Shown piece after piece: positions 730 through 35,956 of a DNA stretch of 35,956 nt (its first letter is position 1; every line of letters begins with the position of its first letter). Origin of the DNA: Hydrurus foetidus (lineage: Eukaryota); contig UYFQ01000774.1 of NCBI GenBank assembly GCA_900617105.1, positions 1 through 35,956 on the forward strand, given 5' to 3'. The position numbers and the translations under genes are program-made. The notes beneath the pieces were generated by a model, which worked only from the letters and a program-made list of their open reading frames with translations, did no database searches and was not told the origin of the DNA.

Positions 730-743
730 CCACAGGCATTCCG

Positions 744-5594: not shown

Positions 5595-5660
5595 TTAAAT
5601 TATTAAGACAACATATGCGTGATGTGTGAATAGAAATGATTGTGATGTGGCATAGGGGTG

Positions 5661-5733
5661 TGTTGGAGATATCGTAGTTTATGACACGGACACAATCAGT
5701 GTACTTATGCATTCGTACGGTCGTACGGATTAA

Positions 5734-5779
<46 letters not shown>

Positions 5780-6017
5780 TACATGCGTGACGACGATGAA
5801 TGGACCCGTGCATCGTCTCTGTACTTCAAGCGTAGTGTAGAATGTCTTTTGTTGTTGCGTTGAAAGGGACTCGGGGACTTCAGCAGGGATGAAGCACAGT
5901 CGATTAACAAGTGTCTACTGCCATACAAGAGCTTATTTCACGAGTCCTGACCGAGTGACCTTCAACCACAGTACAGCGAGAGGCGTACGTGTGGGCCGAA
6001 CCGAAGATCCGTCAACA
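5661..6017 (+). repeat. 3' LTR of element A (357 bp)
   Basis: Copy of 383-719 with (GT)20 at 5737-5776 and two substitutions seen; preceded by AGGGGTG. Confidence 0.95.
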
Positions 6018-6266
6018 TTATAGGTCAATCCTTACGCACAGGAGGATTACAAAATACAAAATAGAAAAAAACCCTGATTTGTCGTGTTCACGTTTGTTCC
6101 GCCGGAGGATCCAATTTACAAAATCACTTTTCTCATTTTTTTCAAATCATCCATCAATGCAAATGACAGAAAAACGCCTGCGATTCTCCAAAGCTAATTG
6201 CCTTGACAAAATCGCATTGACCAGTCTAAAGTCACAATATATCACAGACAAGTCAAGTTTTCAACG

Positions 6267-7827: not shown

Positions 7828-7880
7828 ATATTAAACGAATGTTGTATTGAAAAATTGTAATTAATTTAAATGTTGTTGAT

Positions 7881-9886: not shown

Positions 9887-10222
9887 TATATATAATTGTG
9901 ATGTTGGAAGTACAACGTCGACAACTGCAAGATGTAAATTTGTGATCTGTGAAAGTCCTCGGATCGACAGCCGCGCGTAACAAACGAGGATGTGACAGAA
10001 TTGAAATTTGGGCGAGTTTGTAATTTGTCGGTGCGTTACAGACGAGACATGACAAATGACAATTCGAGGATCTGACAAAACGATCTATTTTGTATTGTGT
10101 AATCCTCCTGTGCGTAAGGACTGACCTTAGAAAAGGGTTCTTTGAAATGTGCATATTTGGCCGTTTTTGGCCAAAACCGAAATTCAAAAATGGTAATTTC
10201 GCACCGAGACCGTCAACGAGGC

Positions 10223-10384
10223 GATTTTTTCGTACCGAGGAAGCGTTTTTCGTACCCATGAAACGCACGAGGGGCGCGCGTCTTTATAGTACCGGAGGTA
10301 TGGAATAGTAATTTCATACCGAGACCATAAAACCCCTCGTGCGTTTCATGGGTACGAAATAAGCTTCCTCGGTACGAAAAAATC
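10223..10384. repeat. 52-bp inverted repeat (10223-10274 / 10333-10384)
   Basis: GATTTTTTCGTACCGAGG...GCACGAGGGG is the reverse complement of CCCCTCGTGC...GGTACGAAAAAATC (2 mismatches here, perfect against 11283-11334). Confidence 0.85.
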
Positions 10385-12233: not shown

Positions 12234-12625
12234 GAATTGTTTCTCGCACCGAGGGCGCAGCCCGAGGTTCGAGATACTTCGAGGTTTATGGTCGAGTGTA
12301 CAAACGTTACTTTTTACTTTTTATTCCGATGGGTTCATAAGACCGTCCCTTACGGGCGGGCTTCTGAAAATGAAAACGTGGTATTTTTTCTTTTGAGATT
12401 TTCCAACCGACCCTTACGGGCATGAAACTGAGGGAAATCATTCCAAGTTCTCAGTTTATCGATTTTTGGTCTGGCCAAACTGAGAAATACGACCCTTTTT
12501 CTCAGTTTCCTCAGTCGCTCCATTTCTGAAAATGAGAACTTGGAATCTCATCTGGAGAGCTGTATGGGACAGACAACGATGTCGTAATGACTCTCTAATT
12601 CACATTTCGTGTCTCATACGTGACC

Positions 12626-14091
12626 ATGGAGCTTCCTCAAATGATCGACTACATCGACTACCCCAGCGGAAGCCTAGACATGTTCCGTTATTCGACTAGT
12701 TTACAACAGTATGACGACAAAAAAAGGAAATTGGAGAGTCTCGTCAGTTCTACGAGTGCTAAGAGGCCATTCGCGACAAGAAGATCATACAGAAGGAGGG
12801 ATCTGAAATCGTCAATTTGGTGGATTGATTATGTGGTTGATGAGTATCAGACATTCAGGGATCCTGCTCATCGCGACGGCAAGCTATTTCGATTTCGCTT
12901 CTCTCACTCGTTCGATTCAGTTCACGAGATAGTAGCCAAGATTCAGGAGAAAGAGCATTATTTCCGGCGGAATAAAAGTGATAGCAGGGGCAAGACATCT
13001 AGTCCCTTAGAACTTCTAGTGCTTGGATCTTTACGTGTTCTTACCAGAAATGTCACGTTGGATGATCTATTTGAACAAACATACATCAGCCCTGAAGTTC
13101 ACAGGTGTTTCTTCAATGAGTTTACAACATGGTACAGTGCTGTAGTTTTCCCTACAGCGGTGAAGATGCCTACTTTGGCAGAGGTTCTTGATAATGGCGC
13201 GGAGTATAGGGTCTCCGGTTTTCCTGGCTGTATTTGCTCTGTGGATTGTGTTCCATGTTCGTGTTTGGGGAGTCTCTACTAATCTCAAATAGGTTTCAAC
13301 TGGAAAAGAGAAATTTCCATCTCGTGTCTTCGAGGCTGCAGTAAATCATACAGGCATGATTGTTTCTGCGACTAAAGGCTTCTATGGAAGTGTTTCAGAC
13401 AAGTCCATAGTAAAATTTGATGGTGCTATGATGGCCATGAAAAATGGTATGTATGATGATAATTCTTACGATATATACAATGATGATGGAGTAATGATGA
13501 GCGTCAAAGGAGCTTACAACTTATGCGACAACGGATACCACAAGTGGTCCACCATGATGGAGCCTACTAAAAGACCTGTTGATCAAGACGATTACAACTG
13601 GACAGAGATGTTAGAAAGATTAAGGAAGGATGTTGAAAAGCTTTTCGGTGAGCTGAAGCAGAAGTTTGCAATCCTGAAGTACGGCAGCCGTTTCAACAAT
13701 ATGGCTCTCATGGATAATATATTTCTGACGTGCTGCGCGATTCATAACCAGCGGAAGGTATTAGCTGGTATGAACGAAATGTGGAACTTAGAAGAGATAT
13801 GCGATCGTGACTTTGATGGTGATTTATCTCAAGAAGAAGCTTCTGTATTTCGTAGATTGACAGAATACAAAACAAAACAAAACACCACTCGATGACAACA
13901 GTGGGATGGGTGGAGATGAGCATTTGATTCTGCCTTATGATGATAATGTAGTTGAAGAACATGATGTATCTCATGACATCGTTGAATGTCGACTTATAAC
14001 ACACTTCAAATGGGCTAACAAAAACAAAGAGGTTTTCTGGGCGACAAGGAATGGTTCAATATCTAGATACAATGTCGCAAGTGATAGGTGA
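12626..14091 (+). pseudogene. Harbinger-type DDE transposase, disrupted
   Basis: FRFRF, PLELLVLGSL, GFPGCICSVDCV, LCDNGY, RKDVEKLFGELK and tail LITHF...VFW. Frameshift ~13253, TAG at 13290-13292, second frameshift ~13880. Confidence 0.82.
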
Positions 14092-15837: not shown

Positions 15838-16261
15838 GTGGGGGGTAAATAGAGGGTGAGTTGGGAGTGGGCCAGAATCCAGGGAACCATCACTCATTCA
15901 TTTCAACATTCTGTACATCGTATTTTATTGCATTTTTGAGTTCACCACTACCAAAGGTAACTTTCCCCAAAGTTTGGACCACTAAAACATTTGGGAACCC
16001 CAAAATTTAGGGGACGTTTCATTTTGCTGGCCTCAGCGATCGCCAGACCACCTAAAACTGGCCCGGGGCCAGTGAGGCCAGGTTCGCTCAAGCCTACACT
16101 GAACGCTACTTCATGTCGAGAGGGCACTTCCAGTTTCGTGAACTCTGCGACTGAGATGTCCATCTGTTTTTTTTCAGTCAATCAAGTACCACAGCGGTCG
16201 TAAAACTGCCGGATTCGCTGTAACACAATTAGTGACGAAGTATTTCTGTTGTTGGATAAGG

Positions 16262-17862
16262 ATGGAACAAAGTCAGCAAACTTCAAGAAAATCACGGAAA
16301 CCTCCAGGTTACTCCAATGCCTTTAATATTTGGCGCACTCACAGCCTCAACAAAGTGACATATTTCACAGGCGATAAATTTCGGCAGCAAAGAATTCAAT
16401 CATGGCAGCCTGTTATGACTCCTGTCAAACTCGTCGTTGTACTCGTAACGATCGGAGTATTATTCATTATCTTGGGAGCTTCGCTGTACAAGATGTCGGA
16501 GGACGTAAGCTCTATTTCGCTGTCTGGATGAGAAAACTACGAAACTCTTTGAAGTAATCATGTGCCACCAACACTCAGAATTCCTTATCTCTTGAATACT
16601 GTAGAAGCTAGATCTTCGAGTTGTCTATGATGGAAGTAGCAAAAACGACGTCCAGTGTCAGATTGGATATGCGAATGAGGGGAGGCAGTGCACGGTCAGT
16701 AATTGCAACTGTGCTGATAATAACTCACACGTTAAATCAGAGCTTCTCTAATCTTCCAGCGGTTCCTATGATGTCAGGTCTCTTTTGTCTTCGACCGTGA
16801 TGTTACAGGTCCCTTATTGGTATACTACGAGCTTGACAGGTTCTACCAAAATCATCGAATATACGTCAACAGCTACAGCTCAGCGCAGCTATTAGGGGCG
16901 GTGAGACACGTCATTCACTACTGTTCTTTAATGTTTATTCTTTCATAGTTGAACGTCTAAGAATTTATATCAAGCATTAATGATACATTCTGATCTCTAT
17001 TATGTTTGTTCGCTAAACTTCACTCACTTGCAGAACATAGGATCAAGCGACAAAGCACTATCCCTCGCATGCAACCCCTCCTCAATGAACGAAATGATGA
17101 ACCTAAACCCTTGCGGACTTATAGCGAAATCCTTTTTCACAGGTAGGATGCAAACACTGCTGATGAATACCGCAGTTGAAAGCCTTGAGCTGATCTAACA
17201 ACGTTTCGTGACTTTCCTAAAATTGGTCGACATTATCATTTCAATAATTAAATCCAGATATAATTACGTTAACTGGGAGTTCCAAAAGTGGTGTTGAAAT
17301 GAAAGAAAAAAATATCGCTGCTCCTGCCGATATACTAAAATTTAATCAAGTGAATGGATTTCGAAGTGAAATCGTGGCCAATGAAGGCGTCTCGTGCTCT
17401 GATGTCGGTCTACCTAGTAACTGCAAATACTACCGTGACAGGGACACTAATGCCTCGTATCTCTTCCACTATCCAAGTGATGAAACAGTACAGTACTTGT
17501 ATGAGCAGTATCCTAGGCAAATATCCCCCATACTTGGCGTCACCGACGAGCACTTTATAGTTTGGATGAGAACCGCTGCACTTCCTAAGTTCAGGAAATT
17601 ATACGGAAGAATTCATCAAAATTTCGTCAAAGGCGATTTTATTAAATTCAATGTTGAGGCCAACTTTGAAGTGCGTAGTTTTAATGGAGACAAAGCCATC
17701 ATTATCGGAACAGCAGGGGCGTCAGGTGGTAAGAATTCTTCTTTAGGAATTGCTTTTCTCGTGTGCGGGTGTTTGGGTATTTTTTTCGCTGGAGGTTTTT
17801 GGGTGCAGTTTAAATTGAATCCGAGATTTTTAGGAGATCAACGTTTGTTGAGATGGGATTAA
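16262..17862 (+). CDS. CDC50: CDC50/LEM3-family P4-ATPase flippase beta subunit, 6 exons
   Basis: Exons 16262-16307, 16371-16504, 16605-16694, 16778-16900, 17034-17142, 17259-17862 joined by GT-AG introns stay in frame. Motifs FRQQRIQSWQPVMTP, YYELDRFYQNHR, PCGLIA, EHFIVWMRTAALPKFRKLYG, GGKN; two TM segments. Confidence 0.92.
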
Positions 17863-18656: not shown

Positions 18657-19730
18657 TCATTGTAGAAGCATATCATTTAATCTTTCGCATATTTCAATCG
18701 TTTGAGTTTCATTAGCACCCTTGGCGAAAAATCCATGGTGCATGTTATTATACACTACAGTTTCCACAGGAACTTTGGAGTCTTCTAATCGTCTCCCGAA
18801 TTTCAAACCTTCGTCAAGAAGTATGTCATGTTTTGCCAGAACAATAAGAGTCCTAGGAAAGTTCTGTAGAATATCATCTGGTGTGCGCATGGGACACGCC
18901 CTATAGTCGGCAGCATCTACTGCTTGATCCGATAAATACATTGACCAAAAATATTGCATCTGCCTCAAAGTTAGCAGAGCGAATGAGGTGCTGTATCGAA
19001 AGTGGCTGTCGAGATATACGCCATGATCGAGGCAAGGGTATAGAATAAATAAGCCTTTAACTTCCGCTTTGTCGGCAGGATTTGTGAATGCTGGATCCTG
19101 ATTTAGTGCGGTGACAGAAGCTGCAATCGTCCCCCCAGCACTCTCACCGGAGATATATATCCTCATAGGATCCCCGCCGTACTCCCTTATCGAGAGTCTT
19201 GTCCACTGCAATACGTCAGCAGCATCATTTACTGCAGCAGGAAAAGGATTCTCAGGTGCTAGTCTGTAATCAACATTTAAAACTATGAAATCCGTGTACT
19301 GAACAATCTTGCTGCACAATGTGTCCTCGTTCGTGAAATTTCCTATAACGAAGCCGCCTCCATGATACCATATTAGAACAGGCCGCAAAGTTAAGGTGTC
19401 AGATTCAATTCTTCCTCCGATGGTGGATTCGTTGGTTACTCGACGGTACAGTCTCAGCGAAATAGCCATGTTTGCACTGCTGTTCATAGATATACTGAAG
19501 AGAGATACATCCTTCGACAGAGTAGAAGGAATACTGTTGATCATTTTGCGAACTTTTGCTAGACCAGCAACTCTATTGTTGAGAGCTGGATAAATGTCTC
19601 TTACGAATAAACCCATAATCGTCGAGATTACCAGTGAAGTCGTATCCACCTCACTTCTATAACATGCGAGTAGAAGGCTCGCGATGCCGACAGCACCGGA
19701 GAGCAGTAGAATACTGGATGTCAAATACAT
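18657..19730 (-). CDS. Alpha/beta-hydrolase, hormone-sensitive-lipase-like esterase with hydrophobic N-terminus
   Basis: HGGGF oxyanion motif, DYRLAPE, GESAG nucleophile, catalytic D (HDIL) and H (HGFF); 357-aa single ORF. Confidence 0.9.
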   Translation of the reverse strand: MYLTSSILLLSGAVGIASLLLACYRSEVDTTSLVISTIMGLFVRDIYPALNNRVAGLAKVRKMINSIPSTLSKDVSLFSISMNSSANMAISLRLYRRVTNESTIGGRIESDTLTLRPVLIWYHGGGFVIGNFTNEDTLCSKIVQYTDFIVLNVDYRLAPENPFPAAVNDAADVLQWTRLSIREYGGDPMRIYISGESAGGTIAASVTALNQDPAFTNPADKAEVKGLFILYPCLDHGVYLDSHFRYSTSFALLTLRQMQYFWSMYLSDQAVDAADYRACPMRTPDDILQNFPRTLIVLAKHDILLDEGLKFGRRLEDSKVPVETVVYNNMHHGFFAKGANETQTIEICERLNDMLLQ

Positions 19731-19920
19731 TGCTCCAGCCGTTCAAGAATGGAGTAGCTTCGGGCAGCTGACTGATCGAGCTTTACCCCGGCAGCGAAGT
19801 TGACACTTATGGTAGAAGTGAAGGCATTATTGCATGATCTGCCACAGTACACTCATCGCTCGCACAAGCTCCGAGCTCGAGCTCACAGCTGTTGGAGTAT
19901 CTGGGAAAAAGACACTGCTG

Positions 19921-20378
19921 TGGTCGGCTAAAACCGTGAAAGCGATCTCCGGTTCCCCTAAGTGACTGTTGCAGTCAACTTTGCGTAGGAGAATAGAGAC
20001 TTGTATTATTCTCTTTGTTCTTGTAAAATAACTTCTTCTTCTCTCAATGGAACGTCTTGAAGCGTATAGGCGCGCTTTCCTATACTCTCTAGACTTCCCG
20101 AAGAGGAGTTTGGATTCTGGAGCTAAATTATTTACGTGGCAAAGAAAGATGCGAGGCTACCAATATTACTCGAGCTATTTCTCATCGGCATTCATCGATA
20201 TATGTCAGCTAAACTACAAAACGTACGTAATTGATTGAAGCAGTTGAAGATCTTTCTACGAATCTAAAAGGTTCAATCAAAATATCTGAGGCTACGGGCT
20301 GCTGAAGTCATCACCCTAGAAGGGCCTAGGATCAGGTATCCAGTACATCTGTACGTGCGATACTGAGAGCCTCGAACA
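19921..20378 (-). repeat. 3' LTR of element B
   Basis: Direct repeat of 25366-25823; preceded on the minus strand by AAGGGGTA. Confidence 0.95.
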
Positions 20379-20620
20379 TACCCCTTGATGAGTTCTGTCA
20401 GTTGCGTTGAAGGCATGATGATATTTACAGAATTCGGGTACCGCGCGGCTGTTTTTCTTCATACGCCTGAAACTTGAAAAATGAAAAATGAAAAACCTGA
20501 AAGCCAGGAAACGGAATGTTTTTGACCCGAACTTTCTCCTGTGAACTTTCTTCTCGTGAGTTCTTCTCGTGGCTCCGACATGCCTGATTCTCCGTCGAGT
20601 CATAAAATAAAATCAGAACA

Positions 20621-23600
20621 CTACCCTGCAACGAGCTTCCGAAGCTTCTCAAATAGTGATCCATGCAGGGGCTTAGTAAGCAGGTCCGCAATCATTTCCC
20701 CAGTTGGCAAGTACTGCAGGATAATCTCCTTTTCCTCGATGTAGTGGTTAATAAAGAAATGGCGTATCTTCACATGCCTGGTACGTTCGCTCGTAGACTT
20801 GCCTCGATTTGCTAAGAAGATTGTCGACTGATTATCTTGGTAAACGACTGCAGGTCCAATCGAAACGCCATGATGGATTAGAAATTCTCGCGTCCAAAGC
20901 ACTTGCGAGAGCGCATCGGAAACTCCTACCAGCTCCGCCTCTGTCGATGATCTGGTAACGATTTTCTGTTTGCTGCTTCTCACATAGACCGTTGCATTCC
21001 CAATCTGAATAACAACACCCGTTACTGATTTCATGTCACTGTAGGTTCCAAATGATGCGTCGACATAGGCGCGGACCTCAATCAACGCGCCAATGCGAAG
21101 GGTGAGTACCCTGCCTCGTGTACCGTATAAGTACGATAGTATCCGATCTAACTTCTTCTCATCATCTTCATCAGGACAAAGGACTCTCGTGGCACAGTAC
21201 GACACTGCAGTCAAGATTTCGTTCCGAATGCGTTTTGCCAGGTAATGCAATTCCATCACGCACGAGTGAAACCATTCTTGCTTGACCTTACTGAGTTTGG
21301 GAGATAGCGGATTTGATATGAAAAGCTTTTCCGTCGCTGGAGTCTTTGCTACAGTCTTCACATTATACTTTTCTAATATATTGTCCACGTAACCATCCAT
21401 AGAGAGCATTACTTGACCGGGTACTCCGAAGTCCCAGTGTACCCCCAGAAAGTCATGCTGTTTTCCTATCCTGGACGTGATCTCAAAGTATTTCGACCGT
21501 AGGGCGTCCGCAATCGATGTGAGTGTCTCCTGTTCCTCTGAGATGATCATGAGGTCGTCAACATATACCAAGATAGTGTCTATCTTATCGTTGTTTACTC
21601 TCGTGAATGAACACTCATCATACGGATTCTTCGTAAATCCCAGGCCATGAAGAGTTGAGGATAGTTCCTTATACCACAGCACCGCCGATTCTATACAGCC
21701 GTATAGAGCTCTTCGAAGCTTCACGACGATGGTGCCATCCGGTCTCGTGAATTCGACATACTCTGGGGCCAATCTGCACAGCAACACTGTGACCTCTTTG
21801 CTTAGTCGCACATAGACTGTGTGCTCACCCATCGCGGCGTTCAGGTATGCTGCCTTGTGGTCAAGAGTCATGACGTGTTGCCTTCTGTGTGCTGCAAGTG
21901 ATGCTGCCATTAACACTGTACTGAGTGCAACCGTGGGTGATGATGTTTCTTGGTCTCTGTATAGCGATCTATCTTGTCTATGCCCCCCTGCAACAAGGCG
22001 GGCTTTCATGCGGTCGATTTGACCGTTGGGTAGTTTCTTCGGCGTTAAGATCATTTTTGATGGAATAGCTGTATTGATTTTGCTCGATTCTCTGACGAAT
22101 TCGAACACTTCCTTCTTAATCAAATTCTTTAACTCTTCTACTACAGCGCCATCTGTAACTTCAGCGCCGTATTGGGACGTTGCGCTTTTGATGGTGAGCG
22201 CAGCGTAGACGTGACGCTCTAGAGTTGATTTCCTGAAATTATAGCCTGGATTGATAGCATTGCGTGTAAGTGCAAGACTGTTGTCATCGACTGAATTCTG
22301 AGACTCTTCTTGCGTGCTAATCTCTGCGTCGACGTCATTTATCATGTCTGTAGGGATAGAGTCTGCAGGAACTAGCGAGAAATTCTCTTCTAGCGGTCGT
22401 GGCTCATTTCCGATAAGGTGTGCTGGATTCATGATCGGAGATTCGTTGATAATGTTTTCTTGATTTGACTCCTGAGGTTCCTCACGAATGTCTAAATTTT
22501 TGCCGTCATTTTCAGGTGACGTCTCTGTGGTGGTATCCGAGTCGATTGTATCTACCCCTCGATGAGGATCGAGCGCATAGGGTTTGTCGGGATTGTCAAG
22601 AGGTGACTCTGGCGGTCCGAGATCGATGTGCTGTAACGGTAAGGATCCTGCGAGTTGTTGGAGTCGTTTGATCGCTGCCTGTGTGAGAAGAGCTGGGCGA
22701 AATATATCTCCAGTGATTTCACGAAGAGTATCTAAATTCAGACATTTGTGTGTGCCTTTTAGGTTGCGCGTCGTTCCTAACCAGACGCAGTAGTCAGCTC
22801 TAGGCATCGCAGTATTACTCTGGACGGTCTGTGCACGCTGTAAAAATCCTGTCGTCCCGAATGCAAATGGTGCGTCGATTCTATAATTCGGGATTCGTCC
22901 TTTAAAAGCCGTGTACGCAGGCTGATGACCTGGTGAGTTTACCTTCGGTACCATATTCGATGTGTGAACAACAAATGCAATTAGATAAACCGCTAACTTC
23001 GATGGTAATGTGTATGGAAGGCTGTGGAGCGTGGATCGCGCCTTGTTCTTGATATGTCGTATGGCTGCTTCGGCATGTGGCGTATGGGATCCACGTCCGA
23101 GAATATTGATTTCAACGCCAAGCTTCTCAACCTCATGTCGGACGGATTTGATGGCACCTTCGCCGTCTGATGTGACGGAGGCGACGCGGAAACCTTTCGA
23201 ATGATATTGCGCAACATGGAGAAGGAGTGCCTCACCAGCCTTCGATCGAGATCGTTCACCACTCTTGTCTCCTGATGTGGCATCGTTTCCTGGACCAAGG
23301 TGGCTTACCATGATCAGACCGAGGAGGACTGATATGCTCAGGAGGAATGCCTGCCCAAGAAAGTAGAAGAGGTCTACTTGAAGATCTTGCTTGACGGATT
23401 GGTGGATTGGGATCATGTCGTTGTCGCGACATTTCGTCGCTTGTTGAGTGCCTTGGCCGAGCTGGTACGCGGCAGGTGTGCCGTAGATGTCCTGCGCATT
23501 GACTAAGTCAGATCTGGTAAATCTGATTTCTTTCATACTTCCCCTCTGTACTATTTCAGCCGCTGCTTTGTAACTTATGTAACCCATTCGCTGCATAAAT

Positions 23601-25285
23601 TGGTAGGCATCTCGAGCAGCATTCAGCTGCTTGATCGAGTATTTGGCGGATTTTGACGCGATGGTGACGACGTATGCCTGTCGTAGTGCGTTGAGGTCCA
23701 TGACGTAGTGGCCGTCCGTGCATGTGAAGGTGAGTGTAGGGCTGGTGTCGGAAATAGCAGTAAATGAATCGTGTTCGTCGTCGTAGTAGATGTCATGTGT
23801 TTCCTTCAATTTGTGATAGCTGATGATATTTGCAGCCATTTGTTGACTGTAGTACCCCCTAATTCCTATTTCATGAATTGTGCCTTCTTCTGTTATTCTG
23901 ACTCTGTCACCTGTTATCCCTTGTACTGTTACAGGTGTTAGCGTCTTCTGGATATCCCGTGTGAGAGCTGGGTTGCGAAATAGATGTATACTCGCTTGAG
24001 TGTCGAGGAGGAGGAGTGTGTCCTGATCTCCCGATACATTGGACAAGAAGACGCTCTTGGTGTGCTCCTGAGGATCATGTGGGTCAAACTGAGATGATAG
24101 GGCTCCATCCAGAGCACTTGATGCGAGGAATATAGTCTCGTCATGTTCGGATGCCGAGAAGTGTACCTTTTTATCGGGACAAGAAGAGGCACGGTGGCCT
24201 TTCTTTCCGCAGGTCCAACACACTATGACATCAGGTGTGATTGTACTCGGAATGCTCGCTGTCGCCGTTTCCGTTGACTTCGAGGGCTCCTTTTCTTGGA
24301 TCGAGGACCGACCCCTGCCACGTCCACCACGGCCTGTCCGGCCTGCCCGGCCCCGCCCCCTACCTCCGTCTATCTTGATGTCGTCGGCTCTCGTCAGGTA
24401 AATGCTCTCCAATTCACTTCCTCTTCCACCTCGGAATCTGATCACTTGAGCATCCTTGACCTCTCTCCAGAGTGTGGAGCTTAGTTCGGGTAGGTCAGCG
24501 ATCCCTCGCCTTTCATTATCCAAATAATCTCTCACTAATCCGGCATATCTTGACATGTCTAGACGGTTGAGAATGCCCGTTACCAGCTCTTCTTCTGGAA
24601 TTACTGGGAGGCCAACAGCAGTTCTTTCGAGCTGGTGGTCATCAACGCGCTTACGGAATGCGAAGCTCGTTTCGTAGGGTTGCATCCGGATGGTCGCCCA
24701 CGCCATCTGGACCCTCTCGCGATCTTGACCAGGATTGCCGCTTTGTCGTGCGATATGAGTGGCACGAATTCTTTGAATAAGGTAGAGTAGATCTCTTGCT
24801 TGATAGCTCTCTGTCCAGTCTTCATCATCTTGAATTTCACCCCTGGAAGATTCACTGAGTTGTGCGTACACCAACGCAAAAACTGCTTGCTTGTTCTCTG
24901 CTATTTTCTTAGAATCGGTTTTCCAATCCTTTTGGTCGCTCAGGAATTGGGACATAATGGCTTTCCCCAAGTTTCCAGCTGGGATTTCTTCTGGCATTAC
25001 CGGCTCCTCGTCTTCATCTCCGAAGGTAGGTGGTATGGTCCAGAATGCATGACAGATTGATGGTTTGTAGGTTATTGCTGTGTGTTCCCCCATCAACTGA
25101 AGAAACTCTATCGGCTTGTTTTCTTTCGCAGTAGCTCCAAAGTTGAGGGTTGGAAGCTCTGGATTATGGCCCTTGAATGCAGGCTCTCGTGTGCTCTTCA
25201 TCTGAGCCACTGGAGGGGCGTGTCTGCCGCGACCGGCTCCCCTTCCTGGACCTCTTGGTCCTCGACCATGACCGCGTCCGGACAT
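20621..25285 (-). CDS. Copia Gag-Pol polyprotein of element B (1554 aa)
   Basis: RG-rich Gag; CWTCGKKGHRASSC; LLDTQAS; integrase QVDLF/SDGEG/HAEAAIR; RT KARLVAGG and YVDDL; RNase H DASFG...ADLLTKPL. Confidence 0.95.
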   Translation of the reverse strand: MSGRGHGRGPRGPGRGAGRGRHAPPVAQMKSTREPAFKGHNPELPTLNFGATAKENKPIEFLQLMGEHTAITYKPSICHAFWTIPPTFGDEDEEPVMPEEIPAGNLGKAIMSQFLSDQKDWKTDSKKIAENKQAVFALVYAQLSESSRGEIQDDEDWTESYQARDLLYLIQRIRATHIARQSGNPGQDRERVQMAWATIRMQPYETSFAFRKRVDDHQLERTAVGLPVIPEEELVTGILNRLDMSRYAGLVRDYLDNERRGIADLPELSSTLWREVKDAQVIRFRGGRGSELESIYLTRADDIKIDGGRGRGRAGRTGRGGRGRGRSSIQEKEPSKSTETATASIPSTITPDVIVCWTCGKKGHRASSCPDKKVHFSASEHDETIFLASSALDGALSSQFDPHDPQEHTKSVFLSNVSGDQDTLLLLDTQASIHLFRNPALTRDIQKTLTPVTVQGITGDRVRITEEGTIHEIGIRGYYSQQMAANIISYHKLKETHDIYYDDEHDSFTAISDTSPTLTFTCTDGHYVMDLNALRQAYVVTIASKSAKYSIKQLNAARDAYQFMQRMGYISYKAAAEIVQRGSMKEIRFTRSDLVNAQDIYGTPAAYQLGQGTQQATKCRDNDMIPIHQSVKQDLQVDLFYFLGQAFLLSISVLLGLIMVSHLGPGNDATSGDKSGERSRSKAGEALLLHVAQYHSKGFRVASVTSDGEGAIKSVRHEVEKLGVEINILGRGSHTPHAEAAIRHIKNKARSTLHSLPYTLPSKLAVYLIAFVVHTSNMVPKVNSPGHQPAYTAFKGRIPNYRIDAPFAFGTTGFLQRAQTVQSNTAMPRADYCVWLGTTRNLKGTHKCLNLDTLREITGDIFRPALLTQAAIKRLQQLAGSLPLQHIDLGPPESPLDNPDKPYALDPHRGVDTIDSDTTTETSPENDGKNLDIREEPQESNQENIINESPIMNPAHLIGNEPRPLEENFSLVPADSIPTDMINDVDAEISTQEESQNSVDDNSLALTRNAINPGYNFRKSTLERHVYAALTIKSATSQYGAEVTDGAVVEELKNLIKKEVFEFVRESSKINTAIPSKMILTPKKLPNGQIDRMKARLVAGGHRQDRSLYRDQETSSPTVALSTVLMAASLAAHRRQHVMTLDHKAAYLNAAMGEHTVYVRLSKEVTVLLCRLAPEYVEFTRPDGTIVVKLRRALYGCIESAVLWYKELSSTLHGLGFTKNPYDECSFTRVNNDKIDTILVYVDDLMIISEEQETLTSIADALRSKYFEITSRIGKQHDFLGVHWDFGVPGQVMLSMDGYVDNILEKYNVKTVAKTPATEKLFISNPLSPKLSKVKQEWFHSCVMELHYLAKRIRNEILTAVSYCATRVLCPDEDDEKKLDRILSYLYGTRGRVLTLRIGALIEVRAYVDASFGTYSDMKSVTGVVIQIGNATVYVRSSKQKIVTRSSTEAELVGVSDALSQVLWTREFLIHHGVSIGPAVVYQDNQSTIFLANRGKSTSERTRHVKIRHFFINHYIEEKEIILQYLPTGEMIADLLTKPLHGSLFEKLRKLVAG

Positions 25286-25354
25286 GTCTTGATTTTACTG
25301 CCAGATACTCTCTGGACTTTCTCAGCAATCAAGATACTCTCTTGAAGCTTTAAT

Positions 25355-25365
25355 ATCTTTCTTTG
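25355..25365 (-). promoter_or_regulatory. Non-tRNA primer-binding site of element B (CAAAGAAAGAT on the minus strand)
   Basis: Abuts the 5' LTR end; exact 11-nt complement of LTR segment 25585-25595. Confidence 0.75.
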
Positions 25366-25823
25366 TGGTCGGCTAAAACCGTGAAAGCGATCTCCGGTTC
25401 CCCTAAGTGACTGTTGCAGTCAACTTTGCGTAGGAGAATAGAGACTTGTATTATTCTCTTTGTTCTTGTAAAATAACTTCTTCTTCTCTCAATGGAACGT
25501 CTTGAAGCGTATAGGCGCGCTTTCCTATACTCTCTAGACTTCCCGAAGAGGAGTTTGGATTCTGGAGCTAAATTATTTACGTGGCAAAGAAAGATGCGAG
25601 GCTACCAATATTACTCGAGCTATTTCTCATCGGCATTCATCGATATATGTCAGCTAAACTACAAAACGTACGTAATTGATTGAAGCAGTTGAAGATCTTT
25701 CTACGAATCTAAAAGGTTCAATCAAAATATCTGAGGCTACGGGCTGCTGAAGTCATCACCCTAGAAGGGCCTAGGATCAGGTATCCAGTACATCTGTACG
25801 TGCGATACTGAGAGCCTCGAACA
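25366..25823 (-). repeat. 5' LTR of element B
   Basis: Direct repeat of 19921-20378, upstream of the gag ATG at 25285. Confidence 0.95.
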
Positions 25824-25828
25824 TGCTG

Positions 25829-26114
25829 TAGTTGTATAGTATGTGTATGGATCCCGACGGACAGCGGCGTGCATCATAGCGCGCGTACCGCTGACCGTTG
25901 GCTGTGTGGGCTCGTGGAGCCATCCATTCGCCTGTCTTCAACATGGGTGAAAACGTGCAATTGTCTTGATATGTAAAGCTTCGTTGCCGTCTTGATTGAT
26001 GCCGGTGCACAAGTTTAATTATCAAGTAATTACGCAAACACACGCCTATTTTACGAGCCTTGGGTCACCGGTCGCCGAGAGTGCAAAGCATCCGGATTTA
26101 GAGATTCCCCAACA
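25829..26114 (+). repeat. Major part of the 5' LTR of element C
   Basis: Matches 31140-31425; ends CCAACA. Confidence 0.93.
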
Positions 26115-26124
26115 TAATTAAACT
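26115..26124 (+). promoter_or_regulatory. Non-tRNA primer-binding site of element C (TAATTAAACT)
   Basis: Abuts the LTR end; exact reverse complement of 26012-26021 (AGTTTAATTA). Confidence 0.75.
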
Positions 26125-26141
26125 AGATCAGCGCATTGAGA

Positions 26142-29100
26142 ATGCCGCCGAAGAAACAAGAAGAACCAAAATCAGGTGCAGAGCACTGCATGCTGAAGTT
26201 TGGGCGCCAGAACAACGTGGTGCAATGGAAGGAAGACATGCAGAACGAGGCATGCGGCCTGTACGGTATGACCGGCATGTTCTTCAGCACCAATAGGCAC
26301 TACGTCCAACCGTATCCTCGAGAGGAGGATTACAACCCCACCTTCCAAACGGTGGATACAGATTACCCGACGGCGGGTATCGAAAACGAGGAAGAAGAAG
26401 ACGGATCCGTAGACCCTGACGATGTCATGATCGGACCACAGCCTCCTCCGCCAGTGCCTACAGTGTACTCAGAGGCACTCATAGACAAACTGCGAGCCAG
26501 TGCGTTCGAAGGACGGCGCAAGGCAGTCGAGACTCAAAGAACCGATGAGCAAAAGCTGTGGTCGCTCATGTGGTCGAGGATGTCCACAGGATCCAAATCT
26601 AAGGTGCGCGAGGAGCCAGAGTTCGAATCATGTCGCCTCAGACTGGACAGCGTTCAGCTGTGGGAGTTCATCCGCAGGAGCCATCTAACCCACATATACG
26701 GTGAAGACGACTCAATGAGAGCGGTGAATATCCACGAACAGACACTGAGGTACAACTACCTCAGACAGGGTGACCGTGAGTATATCGGCGATTTCAAAAC
26801 GCGATTCGATAACCAGGTATTAGCCAACAAGGGTGTTGGTATGACAGAAGTGGAAGAGTCGATAAGAGCTATCGACTTCCTCAGTAAGTTAGACCCCAAG
26901 AGGTATACCGGTATGTTAACATTTATGCGTAATAACGCTGTACAAAACATACCAAACAGTTACCCTTCCACCTTAGCCGGAGCATACAGGGTAGCGTCAT
27001 CTTGGACCAACGCCGGCGGCGGAGTCCCCCTCGGAGCCGAGCAACATTCGGCATTCCTGACCGACAATTTGCCTACAACAAAGGAAAAAGTCCCGGGAAA
27101 GGGCTCGAAAGACAAGACAGCTGCAACAAAGAAGAAATCACCGTCAGTGATTTGCTTCGTATGCGGAAACGCCGGGCACTTCGCGAAAGACTGCGAAAAG
27201 CGCAAGCTCGGGGAGCACGCTCTGCTTGCAGCGACGGGAGATGAGTTAGAAGACGATGATGAGAGCATAGAAGCAGCCTTCGTCACGACAGATGAGACTG
27301 CCCTGTTCACGCGGAGCCACGTGTTGCTTGACAATCAAGCCTCCGTCAACGTATTTTGCAATCCGGGACTCCTAACTGACATCCGGAAATCGAGGCATGC
27401 GATCCTCCTCAACGGAGTACAGCTCGGGGCGGCTGGTGTGCGAGTTAACCAAGAAGGCTACTTCGAGGACATCGGACCTGTATATTACAGCAGCGGAGCC
27501 ACTGCCAATATACTGTCCTTCGCAGCGATGGCTGATAGCGGTGCAGAAATCCGATATGAGCATGAAGCGGGGTGCTTCATCCTGAGACCAACGGGCAGCA
27601 GTACAACGTACACCTTTAGCAGACAAGACCTGCCGGGTTCAGCGGGACGATTCTATGTGTACGATGCGAGCGACATCGCGAGACAGAAGCAGTCTAGAGA
27701 AGTCATAGAGAGAGCACTAGTCGCTACAGTTCAGGACAACATGCGGAAGTTTACGAAACGCGAGATCGCGTCAGCAGGTGAGGCCAGGGAATTGCTCGCT
27801 CGTATGGGATACCCTCCAGTTGAAATGGCGATCGCCATGATTCGAGGGGGGAACAACTTCAGCGTCTCGGAGGCAGACTTCAGGAACGCCCATACGATCT
27901 GGGGCAAATGTCTGGCGAGCATGCGGGGCAAGACTCACAAAAAGTCATCGCCCAAGGCCGATATCTCGCTAACACCTGCGCCAGCACAACAGCAGCAAGT
28001 CCTAAGCGTGGACATCATGTATCTGGAGACAACAGCGATACTTATCGCAGTATCGACCCCTCTGGACATGACCCTCGCAGTGAGCCTCATTCGACTCGAC
28101 ACTGGAAAGACCTCTCGCCAAGCGGCAGTGGTAAAGCCAGCTTTATGTGAAATGATTTCAATACTCAAATCTAGGAACTTCCTAGTGCATGTTATCATGT
28201 CCGACGGGGAAGGCGCTATCGGAAAAATGAGGCCTGACCTAATGGCACTAGGAATTGAGGTCGATGTGTCTGCAGCTGGCGGACATGTTGCAAGAATTGA
28301 AAGACGAATTCAGATGGTAAAGGAGCGTGCACGCGCTCACATATGCGGCAGACTGCCATTCACACTAACCGACCTGGGTAATTCATATCTAGCACTATAC
28401 TGCGTCTCTCGTATCAACTGTCAACAGTCAGGCTCAAGGCCAGGGGGACTCTCCCCGAGAGAATTGTTCTCGGGAAGGCGGGTTGATGGGACCCTGGACT
28501 TCCGCGCTGGATTCGGAGACTATGCCGTTTGTACAGTACCCAACACAGATAACACAATGACATCACGCACTGAAGACTGTATTGTCATGCTACCTACACA
28601 CAGCAGGACTGGCTCATTCAAGATGCTCTCACTCACCACCGGCAGGATCGTTACAAGGGATCAGTTCAAGATACTGCCGATGCCACAGTCAGTCATCGCG
28701 ACACTGAATGCCATGGCAGTCAGAGAAGGGAAGAAAATCATTCAAACTAAATTACATGTGTTTGATGAACTGCTATTCGCCAACAGCCTCGATAAGTCTA
28801 ATATGCCAACCTTCATTACCAACCCCCCCACTCAGGATGTTCCAGTCGAAGAAAGCGTGGTGCAACAACAACCAACACTCATCGACCTACCTTCAGCTGA
28901 CATCTTCGAGATTCCTCCTTCCGATGTGGGGGGGGGGGTAGCAACAGCAGCCGACATCGACACAGCAGCAGTACCAGAAGAAATCAGAATTTTGGAACTC
29001 GAACCATTCGGGGTGCACGTACAGGATGTACCCACACCATACCAACACCACACCACCAACACCCATGTACGAACCGACACCTCCAGACGACATTCCCGAC

Positions 29101-30963
29101 ATCGCACTCACACCAGACAGCGATCCAAGTGCACAACCAGCGATATCTACCGTGAGAGAGCAGCGCAGGGTGCCAACCCCAACAGAGAGAATGGTGACCC
29201 GGTCATCACGAGCGAGTGAAGATGCATTTGTGACCATCGACGAAAGCGTCACAGCAAGAGCATCCAGCACAACAGCGTCGACTCACAGCGTTGACGAGGT
29301 GCTACAGCGCCATAGGGACGAAATGAATAAGAGCAGTACAGCAAACATCAGCGTCAAGGAGGCGTTCCGCACCAGGGGTGACGAAGCCAAGCGGGTGATA
29401 GTATCAGAGCTGAAACAGATGCTGGACAAAAGGGTATGGGTGCCAGTGATGGGGGGAAAGCTGTCAGCAATGCAGAGGGCGACAACAATCAGATCCTCGA
29501 TGTTCCTGAAGCAGAAAAACAACCCAAACGGGAGCTTCCACAAACTCAAGGCGAGGCTGGTCGCAGGCGGCGACCAGCAGGACAAGAGTCTTTACGAAGA
29601 CTTATCCTCACCAACAGTGTCGACCAGCGCGGTTTTCACCCTGTTGGCCATCGCAGCACACGAGAAGCGTGCAGTCGCGGTTGTCGACATCAGCGGAGCT
29701 TACCTCAACGCAGACATGGCATTGGGAACTCCGGTACACATGCGCCTCGACCGTACTATGTCGGACCTCATCATCGGCATCGACCCGACGTACAGTAAGT
29801 ACACAGACGCGAGAGGCGGGGTCACAGTGCATTTGAAGAAAGCTCTCTACGGGTGCGTTGAGAGTTCCGGACTGTGGTACGAGAACCTACACTCGACTAT
29901 GGTAGGGCTGGGGTACGTACGGAATATCTGCGATAAATGCGTATTCAACCGGACCGGCCCGGACGGGCATCAGTGCACTGCCGCAGTTCACGTCGACGAC
30001 TTGCTCATATCGAGCGCGAGCAAGATCTCCATCAGCCATCTGGTAGATGGACTGCGCACGAGGTACGGTGAGATTACCCTATCACATGGACCTTCTATAA
30101 ACTATCTCGGTATGGCAATAGACATGCATGTACCAGGTCAAGCGATGATCACCACGACAGGATATAGCGACGAGATCGTCAAAGTGTCAGGAGTGAAGGG
30201 AGCCGCAAGGTCACCGGCCACGGAAGGGCTGTTCGAGACAAGGGAGGGAGCGGCGCTTGTCGGCGAGCCAGTGCGAGTATGGTTCCACAAGATCGTCGCC
30301 ATGGTGCTATACCTGGCCAAGCGCACTAAACCCGAATGCCTGGTTGCTGTGGCCTACCTGGCCACTCGAGTTCACAAATGCACACTAGACGACGTGGAGA
30401 AACTTCAAAGACTAGTGCGGTACATACACGCGTCGAGGGACAGCGGCGTAGTTCTGAGGCCGGGTGCAGCTGGGATATCGGTGAGGCTCTTCGTAGACGC
30501 ATCCTATGGGGTGCACAGCGACGGACGGTCACACACAGGGAGCTGCGTTGTCATCGGGGACGTTGGGGCGGTGCACTGCAGATCATCGAAACAGCTCATA
30601 GTAACGAAGTCGAGTACAGAGGCCGAGCTCGTAGGCCTTTCTGACTCGGCCAATCAGAGCATATTCATCCGCACTTTTCTCATTGCACAGGGTTACAAGA
30701 TGAAGCCGGTCACCATATATCAAGACAACCAGTCATGCATGGCACTGGTGGAGCGCGGGAGGTCCGGAGCCGAGCGCACACGCCACATCCAGATCAGGTA
30801 CTTCTGGGTCAAGGAGCGGGTGGACACCGGCGAAGTGCGAGTGGAGTACCTGCGAAGTGAAGACATGTACGCGAACGTACTGACGAAGCCCCTCCAGGGA
30901 TCGCAGTTCACAAGAGAGAGAGATGGACTCACGGGATGGTGCGCAGAGAACCCAAAGAAATAA
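26142..30963 (+). pseudogene. Copia Gag-Pol of element C, frameshifted between integrase and RT
   Basis: ORF from 26142 (Gag, CFVCGNAGHFAKDC, LLDNQAS, integrase) and ORF 29026-30963 (RT HVDDL, RNase H) are in different frames. The break lies in a C/A-rich linker ~29035-29055. Confidence 0.88.
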
Positions 30964-31108
30964 GGGTGCCAGCGACAGAGACGACGAGGCGCCCGATACC
31001 ATTTAGTTAGATATTAATGCATGCAAATCAATTCACCTTTTTACCTTTATTGCTGACATGAAAACATATTGCTGCCTGGATGCTCAACTACTGCGTGCCT
31101 GTTGGGTG

Positions 31109-31425
31109 TGTTGGAGTATCCGGAGAAAAGACACTGCTGTAGTTGTATAGTATATGTATGGATCCCGACGGACAGCGGCGTGCATCATAGCGCGCGTACC
31201 GCTGACCGTTGGCTGTGTGGGCTCGTGGAGCCATCCATTCGCCTGTCTTCAACATGGGTGAAAACGTGCAATTGTCTTGATATGTAAAGCTTCGTTGCCG
31301 TCTTGATTGATGCCGGTGCACAAGTTTAATTATCAAGTAATTACGCAAACACACGCCTATTTTACGAGCCTTGGGTCACCGGTCGCCGAGAGTGCAAAGC
31401 ATCCGGATTTAGAGATTCCCCAACA
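31109..31425 (+). repeat. 3' LTR of element C
   Basis: TGTTGG...CCAACA, followed by TSD ACAGC. Confidence 0.95.
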
Positions 31426-31450: not shown

Positions 31451-31789
31451 TGTTGGAGATATCTGAGTTTATGGCACGAACACAATCAGTGTACTTATGC
31501 TTTCGTACGGACGTACGGATTATTATGTGTGTGTGTGTGTGTGTGCGTACATGCGTGAAGACGATGGATGGATCCGTGCATCGTCACTGAATACTTCAAC
31601 AGTAGTGTATGAGTGAATGTTGTTGTTGCGTTGAAAGGGACTCGGGGACTTCAGCAGGGATGAAGCACAGTCAATTAACAAGTGATTACTGACTACACCA
31701 AGCTTATTTCACGAGTCTTGACCAAGCGATCCACGACACACGTACTGCGAGAGGCTGTACGCGGCGTCGAAACTCGAGATCCGTCAACA
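31451..31789 (+). repeat. 5' LTR of element D (339 bp)
   Basis: TGTTGG...TCAACA, with a GT tract; homologous to 383-719. Confidence 0.92.
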
Positions 31790-31799
31790 TAATTGACTG
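31790..31799 (+). promoter_or_regulatory. Non-tRNA primer-binding site of element D (TAATTGACTG)
   Basis: Reverse complement of LTR 31668-31677. Confidence 0.75.
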
Positions 31800-31813
31800 G
31801 CTAGGCATTTCCC

Positions 31814-34800
31814 ATGCCTCCCAAACGCGCTGTAGAAGCCCTCAAGAGTGCAGAAGAGTGCATTCTCCAACACGGCAAACACGGCAACGTCATCAAGTGG
31901 AGAGAACATATGCAGACGATCGTCACAGAACTGTACGGAATCGTGGGGATGTTCTTCACCACAGGCGTGAGATACGAACTTCCGAAGTTATCATACGAGG
32001 ATTATCCCTCAGATTCTTCTTCGGAAAGTTCAGATGAGTCCGACGATGAGGAACCGGGCGTCAACGGTCCGCTAGACCAGGTACGAACTGCAGCAGCAGC
32101 CGCCGCTAAAGCCGCACGCGCTGCGGTGCGACTGGCGAAATCAGAAAGGCAACGCAAAGCCACACAGAAATCTCGTGCGAAATTCAGAGAGAATGAGTAC
32201 ATTCAGAGGAGGAAAGATTTAAAGACGCAACACGAGAACGAACGTACGGTCTTCCCCATGATGTGGAAGCGTATGTCGCTCATATCCCAGAGCAGAGTAA
32301 GGGAGGAAGAGGAGTACAGGACGGCATATCTCACCCTAGACTGCGTCCTATTATGGACACTGATCGAGCGAACCCACCTCACGCACATGTACGGTGCAGA
32401 CGAGGCACTGGTAGAGTACAATCAGCACCAACAGGAGATGAAATACGCGTCTATGAGACAAGGTGAGAGAGAGCACTTAGTAACCTTCAAGAATCGCTTT
32501 GACGAACAGGTGACGGCGAACCTCGCTGTGGGGATCGCAGCCGTATCGGAATCGAAGCGGGCACTCGACTTCCTCGGCAAACTCGATCCCCGCAGGTTCG
32601 GGGTCATGATGGGCGATATGAAGCATGACGCACTAAGGCGTAAACCGGATGCGTTCCCAAATACACTCGCCTCAGCCTTCCACGTATCGAACCAATGGAA
32701 CGAGGGAAGAGACCCCATACCAGCAGCCGCACCAGCACCCATCGGTGCGAACGCAGCGTACGTTACAGAAGGAGCACACGTTACCGCCTCCAGTGACCCG
32801 GAGAAGAAAGCGGGGAAAGCAGGAGGGACCGGTAAGAAATCCTTAGCAGATGTCGAATGCTTCAAATGTGAATTGAAGGGACACTACGCAAGGAACTGTC
32901 CGCAACGGAAACCGTCAGTTGAGAAAGTCCACGTCACGACGACAGAGTCGGACAGTGAGTACGAGGGTGAGGTTAGTGAGTGGGGTATAGCACTGGTCGC
33001 AGCACAGGAGGTATGCTGCTTCACAAAGTACGATGTTCTACTGGACAACGAAGCCTCGCTGAACATCTTCAGCAACAAGGATTTACTCACCAACGTGCGA
33101 GTGACCGACAAGAAAGTGCGAGTAACTGGGATCGAGCAGAGGGGAGGCGTTTCAGTCGATCAAGAAGGAAGCTTCGGGGAGTTCGGAACTGTTTACTACA
33201 GTGGAGCAGCGTCGGCCAACATCTTGTCATTTGCGTCACAAGTTGATTCGGGAGCTGCTATAAGATACGACTACCTTGATGACTGCTTTACCCTGCGACC
33301 TAAGGGGAGCGAGAACGTGTATCGATTTGGAAGGAAGCATGTCGCAGGCAGCGAGGGTAGATTCTACTCTTGCGATTGGAGAGAATTCATGAACGATCGA
33401 GCCCTGGTGGCAACAGTTACTGAAAACCTGAGAGCATTCACGAAGCGTGAGGTGGAGCAGGCTAGGAGAGCCAGGGAGATGCTTGCTAGGATGGGGTTCC
33501 CGACAGTGGAGCAGGCGATGTCGATCATCAACAGTGGGAGCAACTTCGAGGTTAGCGCGAGAGATTTCCAGATCGCTGAAGCGATATGGGGGAAGGATAT
33601 AGCTTCCCTGAAAGGGAAGACTACCAAGCGAGCGACTGCTGTCGCAGACATCACCGTGAGCACAAAAATACTACAAAGAGATCAGGTCCTATCGATCGAC
33701 ATTATGTATTTAGATAAATTAGCTATTCTAGTCGGGGTGGCTACTCCACTAGGTCTAACTATTGCATATAGTCTCAATACAGCAGATCTGAAGAAGCCAG
33801 CGAGGACAGCAGCTCAGGTGAAGCTTGGAATCAGCCATTCCTTGGCGTCCTCGCCTCGCAAAACTTTAGAGCCTCCGTGATCATGAGCGACGGAGAGAGC
33901 GCAGTGGTCAGCCTCGTCGACGAGTTAGGGAAACTTGGGGTGGAAGTGGACATCAGCGGCGCTGGCGGGCACGTGGCTAGGATAGAAAGAAAAATCAGGC
34001 TTGTTAAGGAACGAGTACGATCTCATGTAGCGTACCATCTACCGTTCACATTGTCGACCGTGGGTATCGCCATGTGTGTACTGTACTGTATATCCAGGCT
34101 GAACTACGAACCGGCCGGACTACGAGAATGGGGCCCCAGCCCCCGAGAGGCGTTTATCGGTAGGAAGCCTGATGGTAAGAGGGATTTTCGTTGTTCATTC
34201 GGAGACTACGCACAGTGTACCGTTACTAACACCGATTCAGGAATGGAGAGTCGAACCGAGGACTGTGTGGTGATGCTCCCCCTTGGTAATCGTACCGGGT
34301 CCGTCAGAATGCTATCGCTCAAAACAGGGCGCCTGGTCAACCGTGATCAGTTCCGAATACTCCCGATGCCGGAGTCGGTCATCAAGCGACTTAACGATCT
34401 CGCACTGGCTGACGGTAGAGTCAAGGGTAAGGGGGAATTGTACACGAAACCGGCGAGCTATGCCCAGGACGCAGGCGCAGTGAGTGACCTCCCGGACACC
34501 ATAGAACCCAAAGTGAACGATGGAGTCGACCCTGCGGTCCTGCCACTTGATGACGTGAACGGGCCAGATCAGATAGACAATGGTGAAGGCGTGCAGCACG
34601 GACATGGGAGGGAGTATGAGCAGAGCGACGGTGACGCAATTAACGATATGGATCCACACAGTGGGGATGTAGACCAGCATGGGGTTGCGGAGGATGGGGA
34701 GCATGAGCATGTGGACAGTGAGATGGACAGCCTAGTTGAGAACATGAGCCGCATGCGAGCGGGGCCACGCGACCACGAAGAGACATACGCAAGCGAGATC

Positions 34801-35956
34801 GACGCGAGCGGAGTGCCGGTGGACTACACAGCAGGGGACACGGGTGTGGAAGAGCAGCGGAATGCGAGGGATGCACTGGATCACGCAGCGCGTCTACTGG
34901 ACGTGCCACGGAACCCGATGGGGCACGGCGTCACCAGACACGAGTTGATGGACTTCTTCAGGATGAGAAGTGGCTCGGCACTGCTTACACGGAACTACGA
35001 TGGGAACGGTGCAGACTGGGGAGATCATGTGCTCAACATATCGGTCAATGAGGCGCTGCGAACGAGAGGCGATGCAGCAGTGGGTGTGATAGAGAAAGAG
35101 CTCAGGCAGATGATCGACAAGAAGGTTTGGGAGCCAGTCGACGTGAAGGGGCTGTCATGGGAGGAGAAAAAGAGGATAATCAGGTCTAGTATGTTTCTGA
35201 AGGAGAAGTTCCTTGCAAGCGGGGAGTTTGAGAAGTTGAAGGCAAGACTAGTCGCGGGAGGGGATCAACAGGATCGCGACCTGTACGACGACCTGTCCGC
35301 ACCGACAGTAGCGACGAGCTCGGTCTTCACGTTGCTGAGCATAGCCGCACACGAGGGGAGGAGGATCGCGGTGATTGACATCAGCGGGGCTTTTCTGAAC
35401 GCAGACATGACCACGGGACTCTCAGTGCACATGCGACTGGATCGTAACATGTCAGGCATCATGGTGAGACTGTCGCCCCCATATGCGCAATTCGTCGACC
35501 ACAAGGGGTGTATCGTGGTGCGCCTTGACAAGGCACTGTACGGGTGCGTGGAGTCAGCCGCGCTGTGGTACGAGAACCTGAAAGTCGGACTGTCCGAAAT
35601 GGGGTACGTACCGAACACACACGACACGTGTGTGTTCAACAAGCACAACGAGCACGGAGTACAATGCACTATCGCCGTGCACGTGGATGACTTGATGGTG
35701 ACGAGTATCGATGGGTCTATGATCGAGGTGGTTGCAACCGGTCTGATAAAAAGGTACGGCGACATTACCAGGAAGGATGGCCCTATAGTGAACTACCTAG
35801 GGATGGTTTTCGACCTTTCATTCACAGGTGTGGCACGCGTGTCGATGACGGGATACGTGGAAGACATGCTCAAAGAAAGCGGGACGAAGGGGGGTGCGAG
35901 ATCACCAGCGACAGAGGGACTCTTCGACGCGAGGGAGAGTGCGGCGATGGCGAGCG
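31814..35956 (+). pseudogene. Copia Gag-Pol of element D with a 1-nt frameshift in integrase; incomplete at the window edge
   Basis: ORF 31814-33880 follows the A protein to GISH. One T is missing near 33838 (CATTCCTT for CAT TTC CTT); the shifted frame continues through integrase and RT (HVDDL) toward the window end. Confidence 0.88.

Follow-up and report, generated by a model that had tools for sequence, protein, structure and literature searches.

The window, a stretch of 35,956 nt of Hydrurus foetidus DNA, holds four copia retrotransposons, here called A, B, C and D, together with two host genes and further repeats (Table 1). Directly after the 3′ LTR of A stands a Harbinger-like DNA transposon, which encodes a DDE transposase (Plant_tran, DDE_Tnp_4) and has terminal inverted repeats of 44 nt. 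Beyond it lie a tandem repeat with a unit of about 950 bp, present in two to three copies and carrying a 52-nt inverted arm, and a second transposase-like gene, split between two frames, that resembles the first by eye. One of the host genes encodes a CDC50/LEM3 flippase subunit, for which the best named match (over 17248–17862) was from Ochromonas, at 55%. Judged by this one gene, the host is probably a chrysophyte; an Atlas search with it gave no clue to the taxon. The other host gene, intronless, encodes an alpha/beta hydrolase and ends about 150 bp from the LTR of C. Over the C LTR (25824–25950, 19890–19920) the summed depth of the contigs from the DNA runs was about 24,000, compared with 130 in the flank, which suggests a large family or many solo LTRs.

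Table 1. Position of the features of the window; numbering starts at its first nucleotide
Feature	Position	Strand	Description
Element A	383–6017		Related copia element; LTRs differ at 2 sites and by a repeat-length change
Harbinger-like DNA transposon	6022–10127
Tandem repeat	10223–12313
Second transposase-like gene	12599–13895
CDC50/LEM3 flippase subunit gene	16142–17862	+
Alpha/beta hydrolase gene	18657–19742	−
Element C	19890–31425	+	Related copia element; LTRs differ at 4/317 sites; ORF frameshifted; own duplication ACAGC
5′ LTR of C, split by B	19890–19920 and 25829–26114	+	Halves match the 3′ LTR of C (31109–31425) at 313/317
Target-site duplication TGCTG, left copy	19916–19920	+	From sequence and empty site
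Element B	19921–25823	−	Ty1/copia retrotransposon
3′ LTR of B	19921–20378	−	458 bp; carries a second copy of the 11-nt motif at 20150–20140
Polypurine-tract-like G-rich stretch AAGGGGTA	20379–20386	−	Short; just before the 3′ LTR of B
Gag-Pol ORF of B	20621–25285	−	Single, 1554 aa
Primer-binding site CAAAGAAAGAT	25355–25365	−	Directly after the 5′ LTR; exact complement of 25595–25585, 11/11 nt
5′ LTR of B	25366–25823	−	458 bp; starts TGTTCG, ends CGACCA; ends from target duplication and empty site
Predicted self-primer ATCTTTCTTTG	25585–25595	−	LTR positions 229–239, 230 nt from the LTR end
Target-site duplication TGCTG, right copy	25824–25828	+	From sequence and empty site
Element D	31451–35956, cut by the window end		Related copia element; frameshifted

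Element B has its domains in copia order. Its reading frame is open across 1557 codons, with the first ATG at 25285, and the polyprotein (P0001) comprises, from N- to C-terminus, an RG-rich Gag, a CCHC knuckle, a protease (DTQ), an integrase core (D, D, E), a reverse transcriptase (RT; YVDD) and an RNase H. The RT corresponds to the Pfam family RVT_2 (E 1.7e-24, 87 bits against a cut-off of 31.6), and zf-CCHC was also matched; the protease, integrase and RNase H residues were assigned by copia motifs rather than by a profile match. All these motifs are retained in 14 relatives, except for the last RNase H motif, which is absent from two truncated relatives. An HHCC zinc motif at the N-terminus of the integrase is typical of Ty1/copia. 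No such motif was found in B, whose residues 541–640 hold just one C and one H, and in 14 relatives M or L takes the place of H at the aligned motif. The integrase lacks the zinc motif throughout the subclade of B, and by eye the same is true of A, C and D. A PDB sequence search returned weak zinc-knuckle matches only. That the protein of B is more distant than those of its neighbours, as had been proposed from its YVDD and RG-rich Gag, is borne out by YVDD in place of the HVDD of A, C and D, and by an identity of 29% to A over 1544 residues; in RT-RNase H, B is 41% identical to C. Its LTR is likewise distinct, and at E < 1 blastn matched it to none of those of A, C and D.

B interrupts the 5′ LTR of C after its first 31 bases and has the opposite orientation. 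The intact 3′ LTR of C provides the empty site, with a single TGCTG, and the same empty junction was seen in contigs of two DNA runs. The earlier note had regarded the LTR edge as set by the TGCTG duplication. This 458-bp register is indeed preferred, but the empty site alone does not impose it: owing to a repeated CA where the LTR ends, an LTR of 460 bp with a 3-bp duplication and a 9-nt primer match would fit equally. The 460-bp alternative was judged less likely, since the 458-bp end better mirrors the LTR start, since A and C have 5-bp duplications, and since in the relatives L001–L004, L011 and L012, too, the primer site opens with C and follows a clear inverted repeat at the LTR terminus. 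With this 2-bp ambiguity at its end, B shows the TG…CA LTRs, the polypurine tract and the 5-bp target duplication of Ty1/copia elements. Of 10 circular relatives, 9 have a G-run similar to that of B ahead of the start of the LTR.

The two LTRs of B are identical at 458/458 positions which, combined with the intact ORF and the location inside C, upholds the view that the insertion is very recent; B is younger than C. Of the four elements of the window, B also remains the foremost candidate for activity, since C is frameshifted and has four LTR differences, D is frameshifted and cut by the window end, and the LTRs of A differ from each other. In two DNA runs, the contig with the flanking host gene had a depth of 128–130, the interior of B one of 600–690 with 0–1 differences across most of its length, and the contigs of its LTR one of 1420–1610. 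Read loosely, as depth is not copy number, these values suggest about five near-identical copies of B. Depth and near-identity support a recent amplification, which is distinct from present activity. At position 24300 the window differs from the main DNA-run contigs by a missense change in the Gag linker (P0001 residue 332), either a private change or an assembly error. A sibling LTR family is present in the same organism (run X4, 20070–20356), with 32 differences in 276 nt, one of which, at 20148, falls within the 11-nt motif.

All strand-resolved RNA signal over B was antisense. Two freshwater metatranscriptome runs, each from a separate study, showed nine joints over B, every one a GT-AG intron on the plus strand, of 73–161 nt, lying within 20781–25131 opposite the ORF, and two of them were common to both runs; at the joints found in the DNA runs GT-AG occurred in 0 of 6. 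These antisense RNAs come from related wild copies and not from this strain. An antisense gene was considered and is not supported, as the spliced pieces have no long frame (the longest spanning 112 of 175 and 79 of 219 codons). The antisense RNA is possibly read-through or linked to silencing.

Immediately past the 5′ LTR, where a tRNA site would be, B carries CAAAGAAAGAT, and its exact 11-nt complement, ATCTTTCTTTG, lies about 230 nt before the LTR end. Both the self-complementary site and its taking the place of a tRNA site had been put forward in the earlier note, and both are supported here. No TGG-type tRNA primer site was found in the 26 nt after the LTR, and ARAGORN detected no tRNA gene in the window. 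The motif is of low complexity, as might be expected of a chance match in an A/T-rich region. A complement of at least 11 nt, however, arose in just 9 of 20,000 dinucleotide shuffles of the B LTR. When all positions of the internal region of B were compared, 11 nt was reached only at the position right after the LTR.

The arrangement was then sought among relatives of B. A search with the RT-RNase H protein yielded 773 proteins, the best of them 84% identical; no relatives were found in the viral contigs or prokaryote genomes searched. Metagenome contigs were scanned with an alignment of 15 close proteins, giving 80 loci, 32 of which were examined, leaving out 45 that were under 4 kb and three (L008, L059, L073) with no usable gag start. 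For each locus, every candidate LTR end before gag was assayed for a complement within the LTR and compared with 200 shuffles handled alike. A perfect complement of 9–16 nt at the LTR end was observed in 27 of the 32 loci, including the near-duplicates L017 and L018, and it reached at least 10 nt in 23 of the 32. With all candidate ends allowed for, 23 of the 27 paired loci were individually significant (p ≤ 0.025) and four were not. Three loci (L036, L037, L065) had only 8 perfect bases, and two could not be judged for pairing: L005, without the LTR part that bears the motif, and L046, without a recognisable LTR end. For L036 a 10-nt match picked by the script was dropped, as it did not lie at the LTR end; the true end, located by eye, shows 8 nt, a mismatch and two more pairs. 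Within the window, A, C and D each carry a 10-nt self-complementary primer site. With the same arrangement in these three elements and in the 27 loci, a chance origin of the pairing in B is effectively refuted.

The letters of the paired stretch differ from element to element. In a set of 29 elements, without the near-duplicates D and L018 and the falsely picked L036, there were 25 different primer-site 9-mers; when 812 cross pairs were compared, the 9-mer of one element matched the LTR region of another in just 14. In close relatives, a change on one side of the pairing was mirrored on the other (L001–L004; L015, L017, L029 and L057; A compared with C). The elements are kin, and therefore these counts overstate the number of independent events. 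Covariation arising automatically, by copying of the primer into the primer site, was not relied on, because the primer sequence is not inherited in Ty1 and Ty3 according to the account in PMC5371799. Because the primer sites are so varied, no single tRNA could serve them. This bears on a reading in which a tRNA half or another host RNA primes synthesis and its sequence was captured by the LTR secondarily. Half-tRNA priming is described as common in the copia lineages Osser, Bryco and Bianca (PMC6317226), so that such a primer would have precedent. The diversity of 9-mers, three of them in this window and each matched by the element's own LTR, and the fact that no Rfam match was found over B nevertheless make a host primer very unlikely. 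The 11-mer CAAAGAAAGAT, moreover, presumably does not fit an anticodon arm.

Some peculiarities of individual relatives were recorded. The LTR of L038 (1–50, 4937–5426) is apparently CG…CG instead of TG…CA, and a 15-nt self-complementary primer site is present nonetheless. In L032 (97–115) a primer site of 16–17 nt overlaps the gag start codon, where pairing might block translation as well. An (A/T)CAAG motif right after the paired stretch is common to A, C, D and several loci.

The edge of the paired stretch was inspected for signs of a transcription start. The first A of ATCTTTCTTTG belongs to a CA dinucleotide (25596–25595), and B reads GCA-TC there. A CA whose A coincides with the first paired base or directly precedes it was found in 21 of the 29 elements (background 12%) and pyrimidine-A at the 5′ edge in 25 of the 29 (background 31%), counts that come from kin elements and so do not represent independent events. 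Diatom start sites have been described by the patterns CAY(+1)A or TCAH(+1)W, while TCATTCT is named as the most frequent initiator in Phytophthora (PMC4686930, PMC3599244). The CA edge fits these CA-containing diatom and oomycete initiators, and thereby lends indirect support to the paired stretch being the putative 5′ end of the RNA. RNA taken from 25595 folds with an 11-bp stem that closes the whole leader (z −2.87, pair probability 0.97–0.98). The stem is equally good (0.91–0.98) when the 5′ end is moved upstream by as much as 228 nt, and for that reason folding cannot place the start of B. Among the 27 predicted leaders, folded without a shuffled control, stem probability was at least 0.75 in 22 and below 0.15 in four. 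The five sequencing runs compared are contigs, which cannot show RNA ends, and the contigs of the RNA runs X1 and X2 (shares 0.11 and 0.07) leave the predicted start and most of the B LTR uncovered.

The sequences themselves show the pairing, where it lies, how it covaries among relatives and that B has no standard tRNA site, and the interpretation that we favour is that B quite probably primes reverse transcription as Tf1 does, with the first 10–11 bases of its own RNA, start and cleavage being predicted. The RNA would start at the CA 25596–25595, with the A or the next base, which would make ATCTTTCTTTG its 5′ end, and folding predicts that this end pairs back onto the primer site over a loop of 219 nt. 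By analogy with Tf1, the RNase H of the element would cut past the paired stretch, and the freed 3′ end would prime minus-strand DNA synthesis through U5 and R. The RNase H motifs are intact in B. The remaining cycle would be that of an ordinary copia element, in which the plus strand is primed at the G-rich tract and the 5-bp duplication arises on integration.

The same letters could serve a primer that acts in trans, either the 5′ end of the second packaged RNA or a short promoter-proximal transcript of any LTR copy. The covariation and the CA edge would fit such a primer equally well, the intramolecular stem is not favoured in 4 of the 27 leaders, and the depth of the LTR contigs, more than twice that of the interior, is a hint of extra LTRs. 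By contrast, the strong intramolecular stem of B and of the 22 leaders, and the fact that fold-back is the route described for Tf1, argue for priming within one molecule and render a trans primer unlikely. A further alternative is that the pairing works as a structural switch in translation, dimerisation or packaging while priming proceeds by another site or mechanism. Any selected RNA helix would co-vary, and fungal copia elements of the GalEa group keep a hairpin of unknown role at the primer-site position (PMC5445492). In B, however, the 3′ arm starts at the first post-LTR base, where the 3′ end of a primer must sit to define the LTR end, and the 5′ arm ends at the initiator-like CA, so that a purely structural role appears distinctly unlikely and priming by the element's own RNA the better reading.

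The earlier note had presented B as an independent instance of self-priming. A tree of RT-RNase H was built with FastTree from 73 sequences (A, B, C, D, the 32 loci and 37 of 120 listed proteins) and rooted at midpoint; without an outgroup, the position of its root is uncertain. B fell in a fully supported subclade with the proteins P0002–P0027, inside which there were none of the DNA loci. The pairing is present on the sister branch, which contains A, C, D and most loci, and further out (14 nt in L034 and L043, 16 nt in L055). Because sister and more distant branches also carry it, shared ancestry is the simpler reading. B thus adds a data point with different letters, but not a separate origin, and the self-priming trait probably goes back to the ancestor of a wide radiation of copia elements in aquatic protists, to which A, C and D also belong.

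In the accounts consulted, self-priming is demonstrated for Tf1, a gypsy element, and in copia is predicted from sequence for a single lineage of plants. That the pairing has survived many sequence changes across a copia radiation of protists is strong evidence, of a comparative kind, for the ability of a copia enzyme to self-prime. It is also relevant to a question raised in PMC3601003, namely whether hairpin priming goes back to an ancestor, which is argued there to be possible, or arises again and again. B itself is a convenient element for testing, with one open ORF, identical LTRs, several near-identical copies and an exact predicted start, and the natural sibling with a change inside the primer adds to its value as a test case. 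In practical terms, LTR annotators based on tRNA would miss the primer sites of this copia group.

Among copia elements, a precedent is the plant lineage TAR, for which self-priming was predicted in 89% of 203 elements, following earlier proposals for Houba and Osr-1 (PMC6317226); self-priming in copia is therefore not new as an idea. TAR elements (Houba, Osr-1) and B share a copia organization, a single ORF, a 5-bp duplication and a prediction of self-priming made by the same sequence rule, and B satisfies that rule, a complement of at least 10 bp starting 0–5 bp after the LTR (PMC6317226). TAR is found in plants whereas B belongs to a probable chrysophyte, and the two are likened by this rule. 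The RT and RNase H motifs of B, and its integrase devoid of HHCC, presumably differ from those of plant copia elements. The TAR precedent lessens the surprise of finding B, and an intact, multicopy B makes copia self-priming directly testable. A literature search, with most subscription journals outside its reach, found no publication on self-priming in stramenopile or algal copia elements. CoDiI and CoDiII of diatoms resemble B in being stramenopile copia elements of similar size with TG…CA LTRs (PMC2806351). A term search of the main text of that paper returned no primer-site description, and no named CoDi protein was among the matches to the proteins of B; the top Atlas look-alike of the B RT region is a cluster in which diatoms are the commonest known phylum (three members with a record). 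The fungal GalEa elements are, like B, copia elements without a tRNA primer site, but they are described as having no LTR complement to their conserved hairpin site, whereas in B the complement is present and co-varies in relatives (PMC5445492).

Outside copia, Tf1 is the experimentally shown self-primer, in which the primer site is paired by the 11 leading bases of the element and RNase H cuts these (PMC7175516), and Tj1 of S. japonicus has been proposed to self-prime likewise (PMC4600332). As described for these elements, Tf1/Tf2 of Schizosaccharomyces pombe, Tj1, the Tf1/sushi group and Tcn1, all Ty3/gypsy, share with B a post-LTR primer site complementary to about 11 nt inside the LTR and the lack of a tRNA site. 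They differ in that B has copia order, with the integrase before the RT, an RT of the RVT_2 type and no chromodomain match, whereas Tf1/sushi elements have the Ty3/gypsy order RT-RH-IN and belong to the chromovirus lineage; moreover, the paired length in the relatives of B ranges from 9 to 16–17 nt, compared with about 11 nt in Tf1-type elements. A broader scenario, to which we would give even chances, places B in an old and wide copia radiation of ochrophytes and other aquatic protists that would have lost tRNA priming separately from Tf1/sushi and from plant TAR, amounting to a third origin. In this radiation a copia RT-RNase H would use primers of 9–17 nt, their length set by the distance from the initiator CA to the cut, and B would now be amplifying, its copies giving rise to multiply spliced antisense RNA in wild populations. 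By analogy, B most likely works like Tf1, yet it is a copia element that stands outside the Tf1/sushi group.
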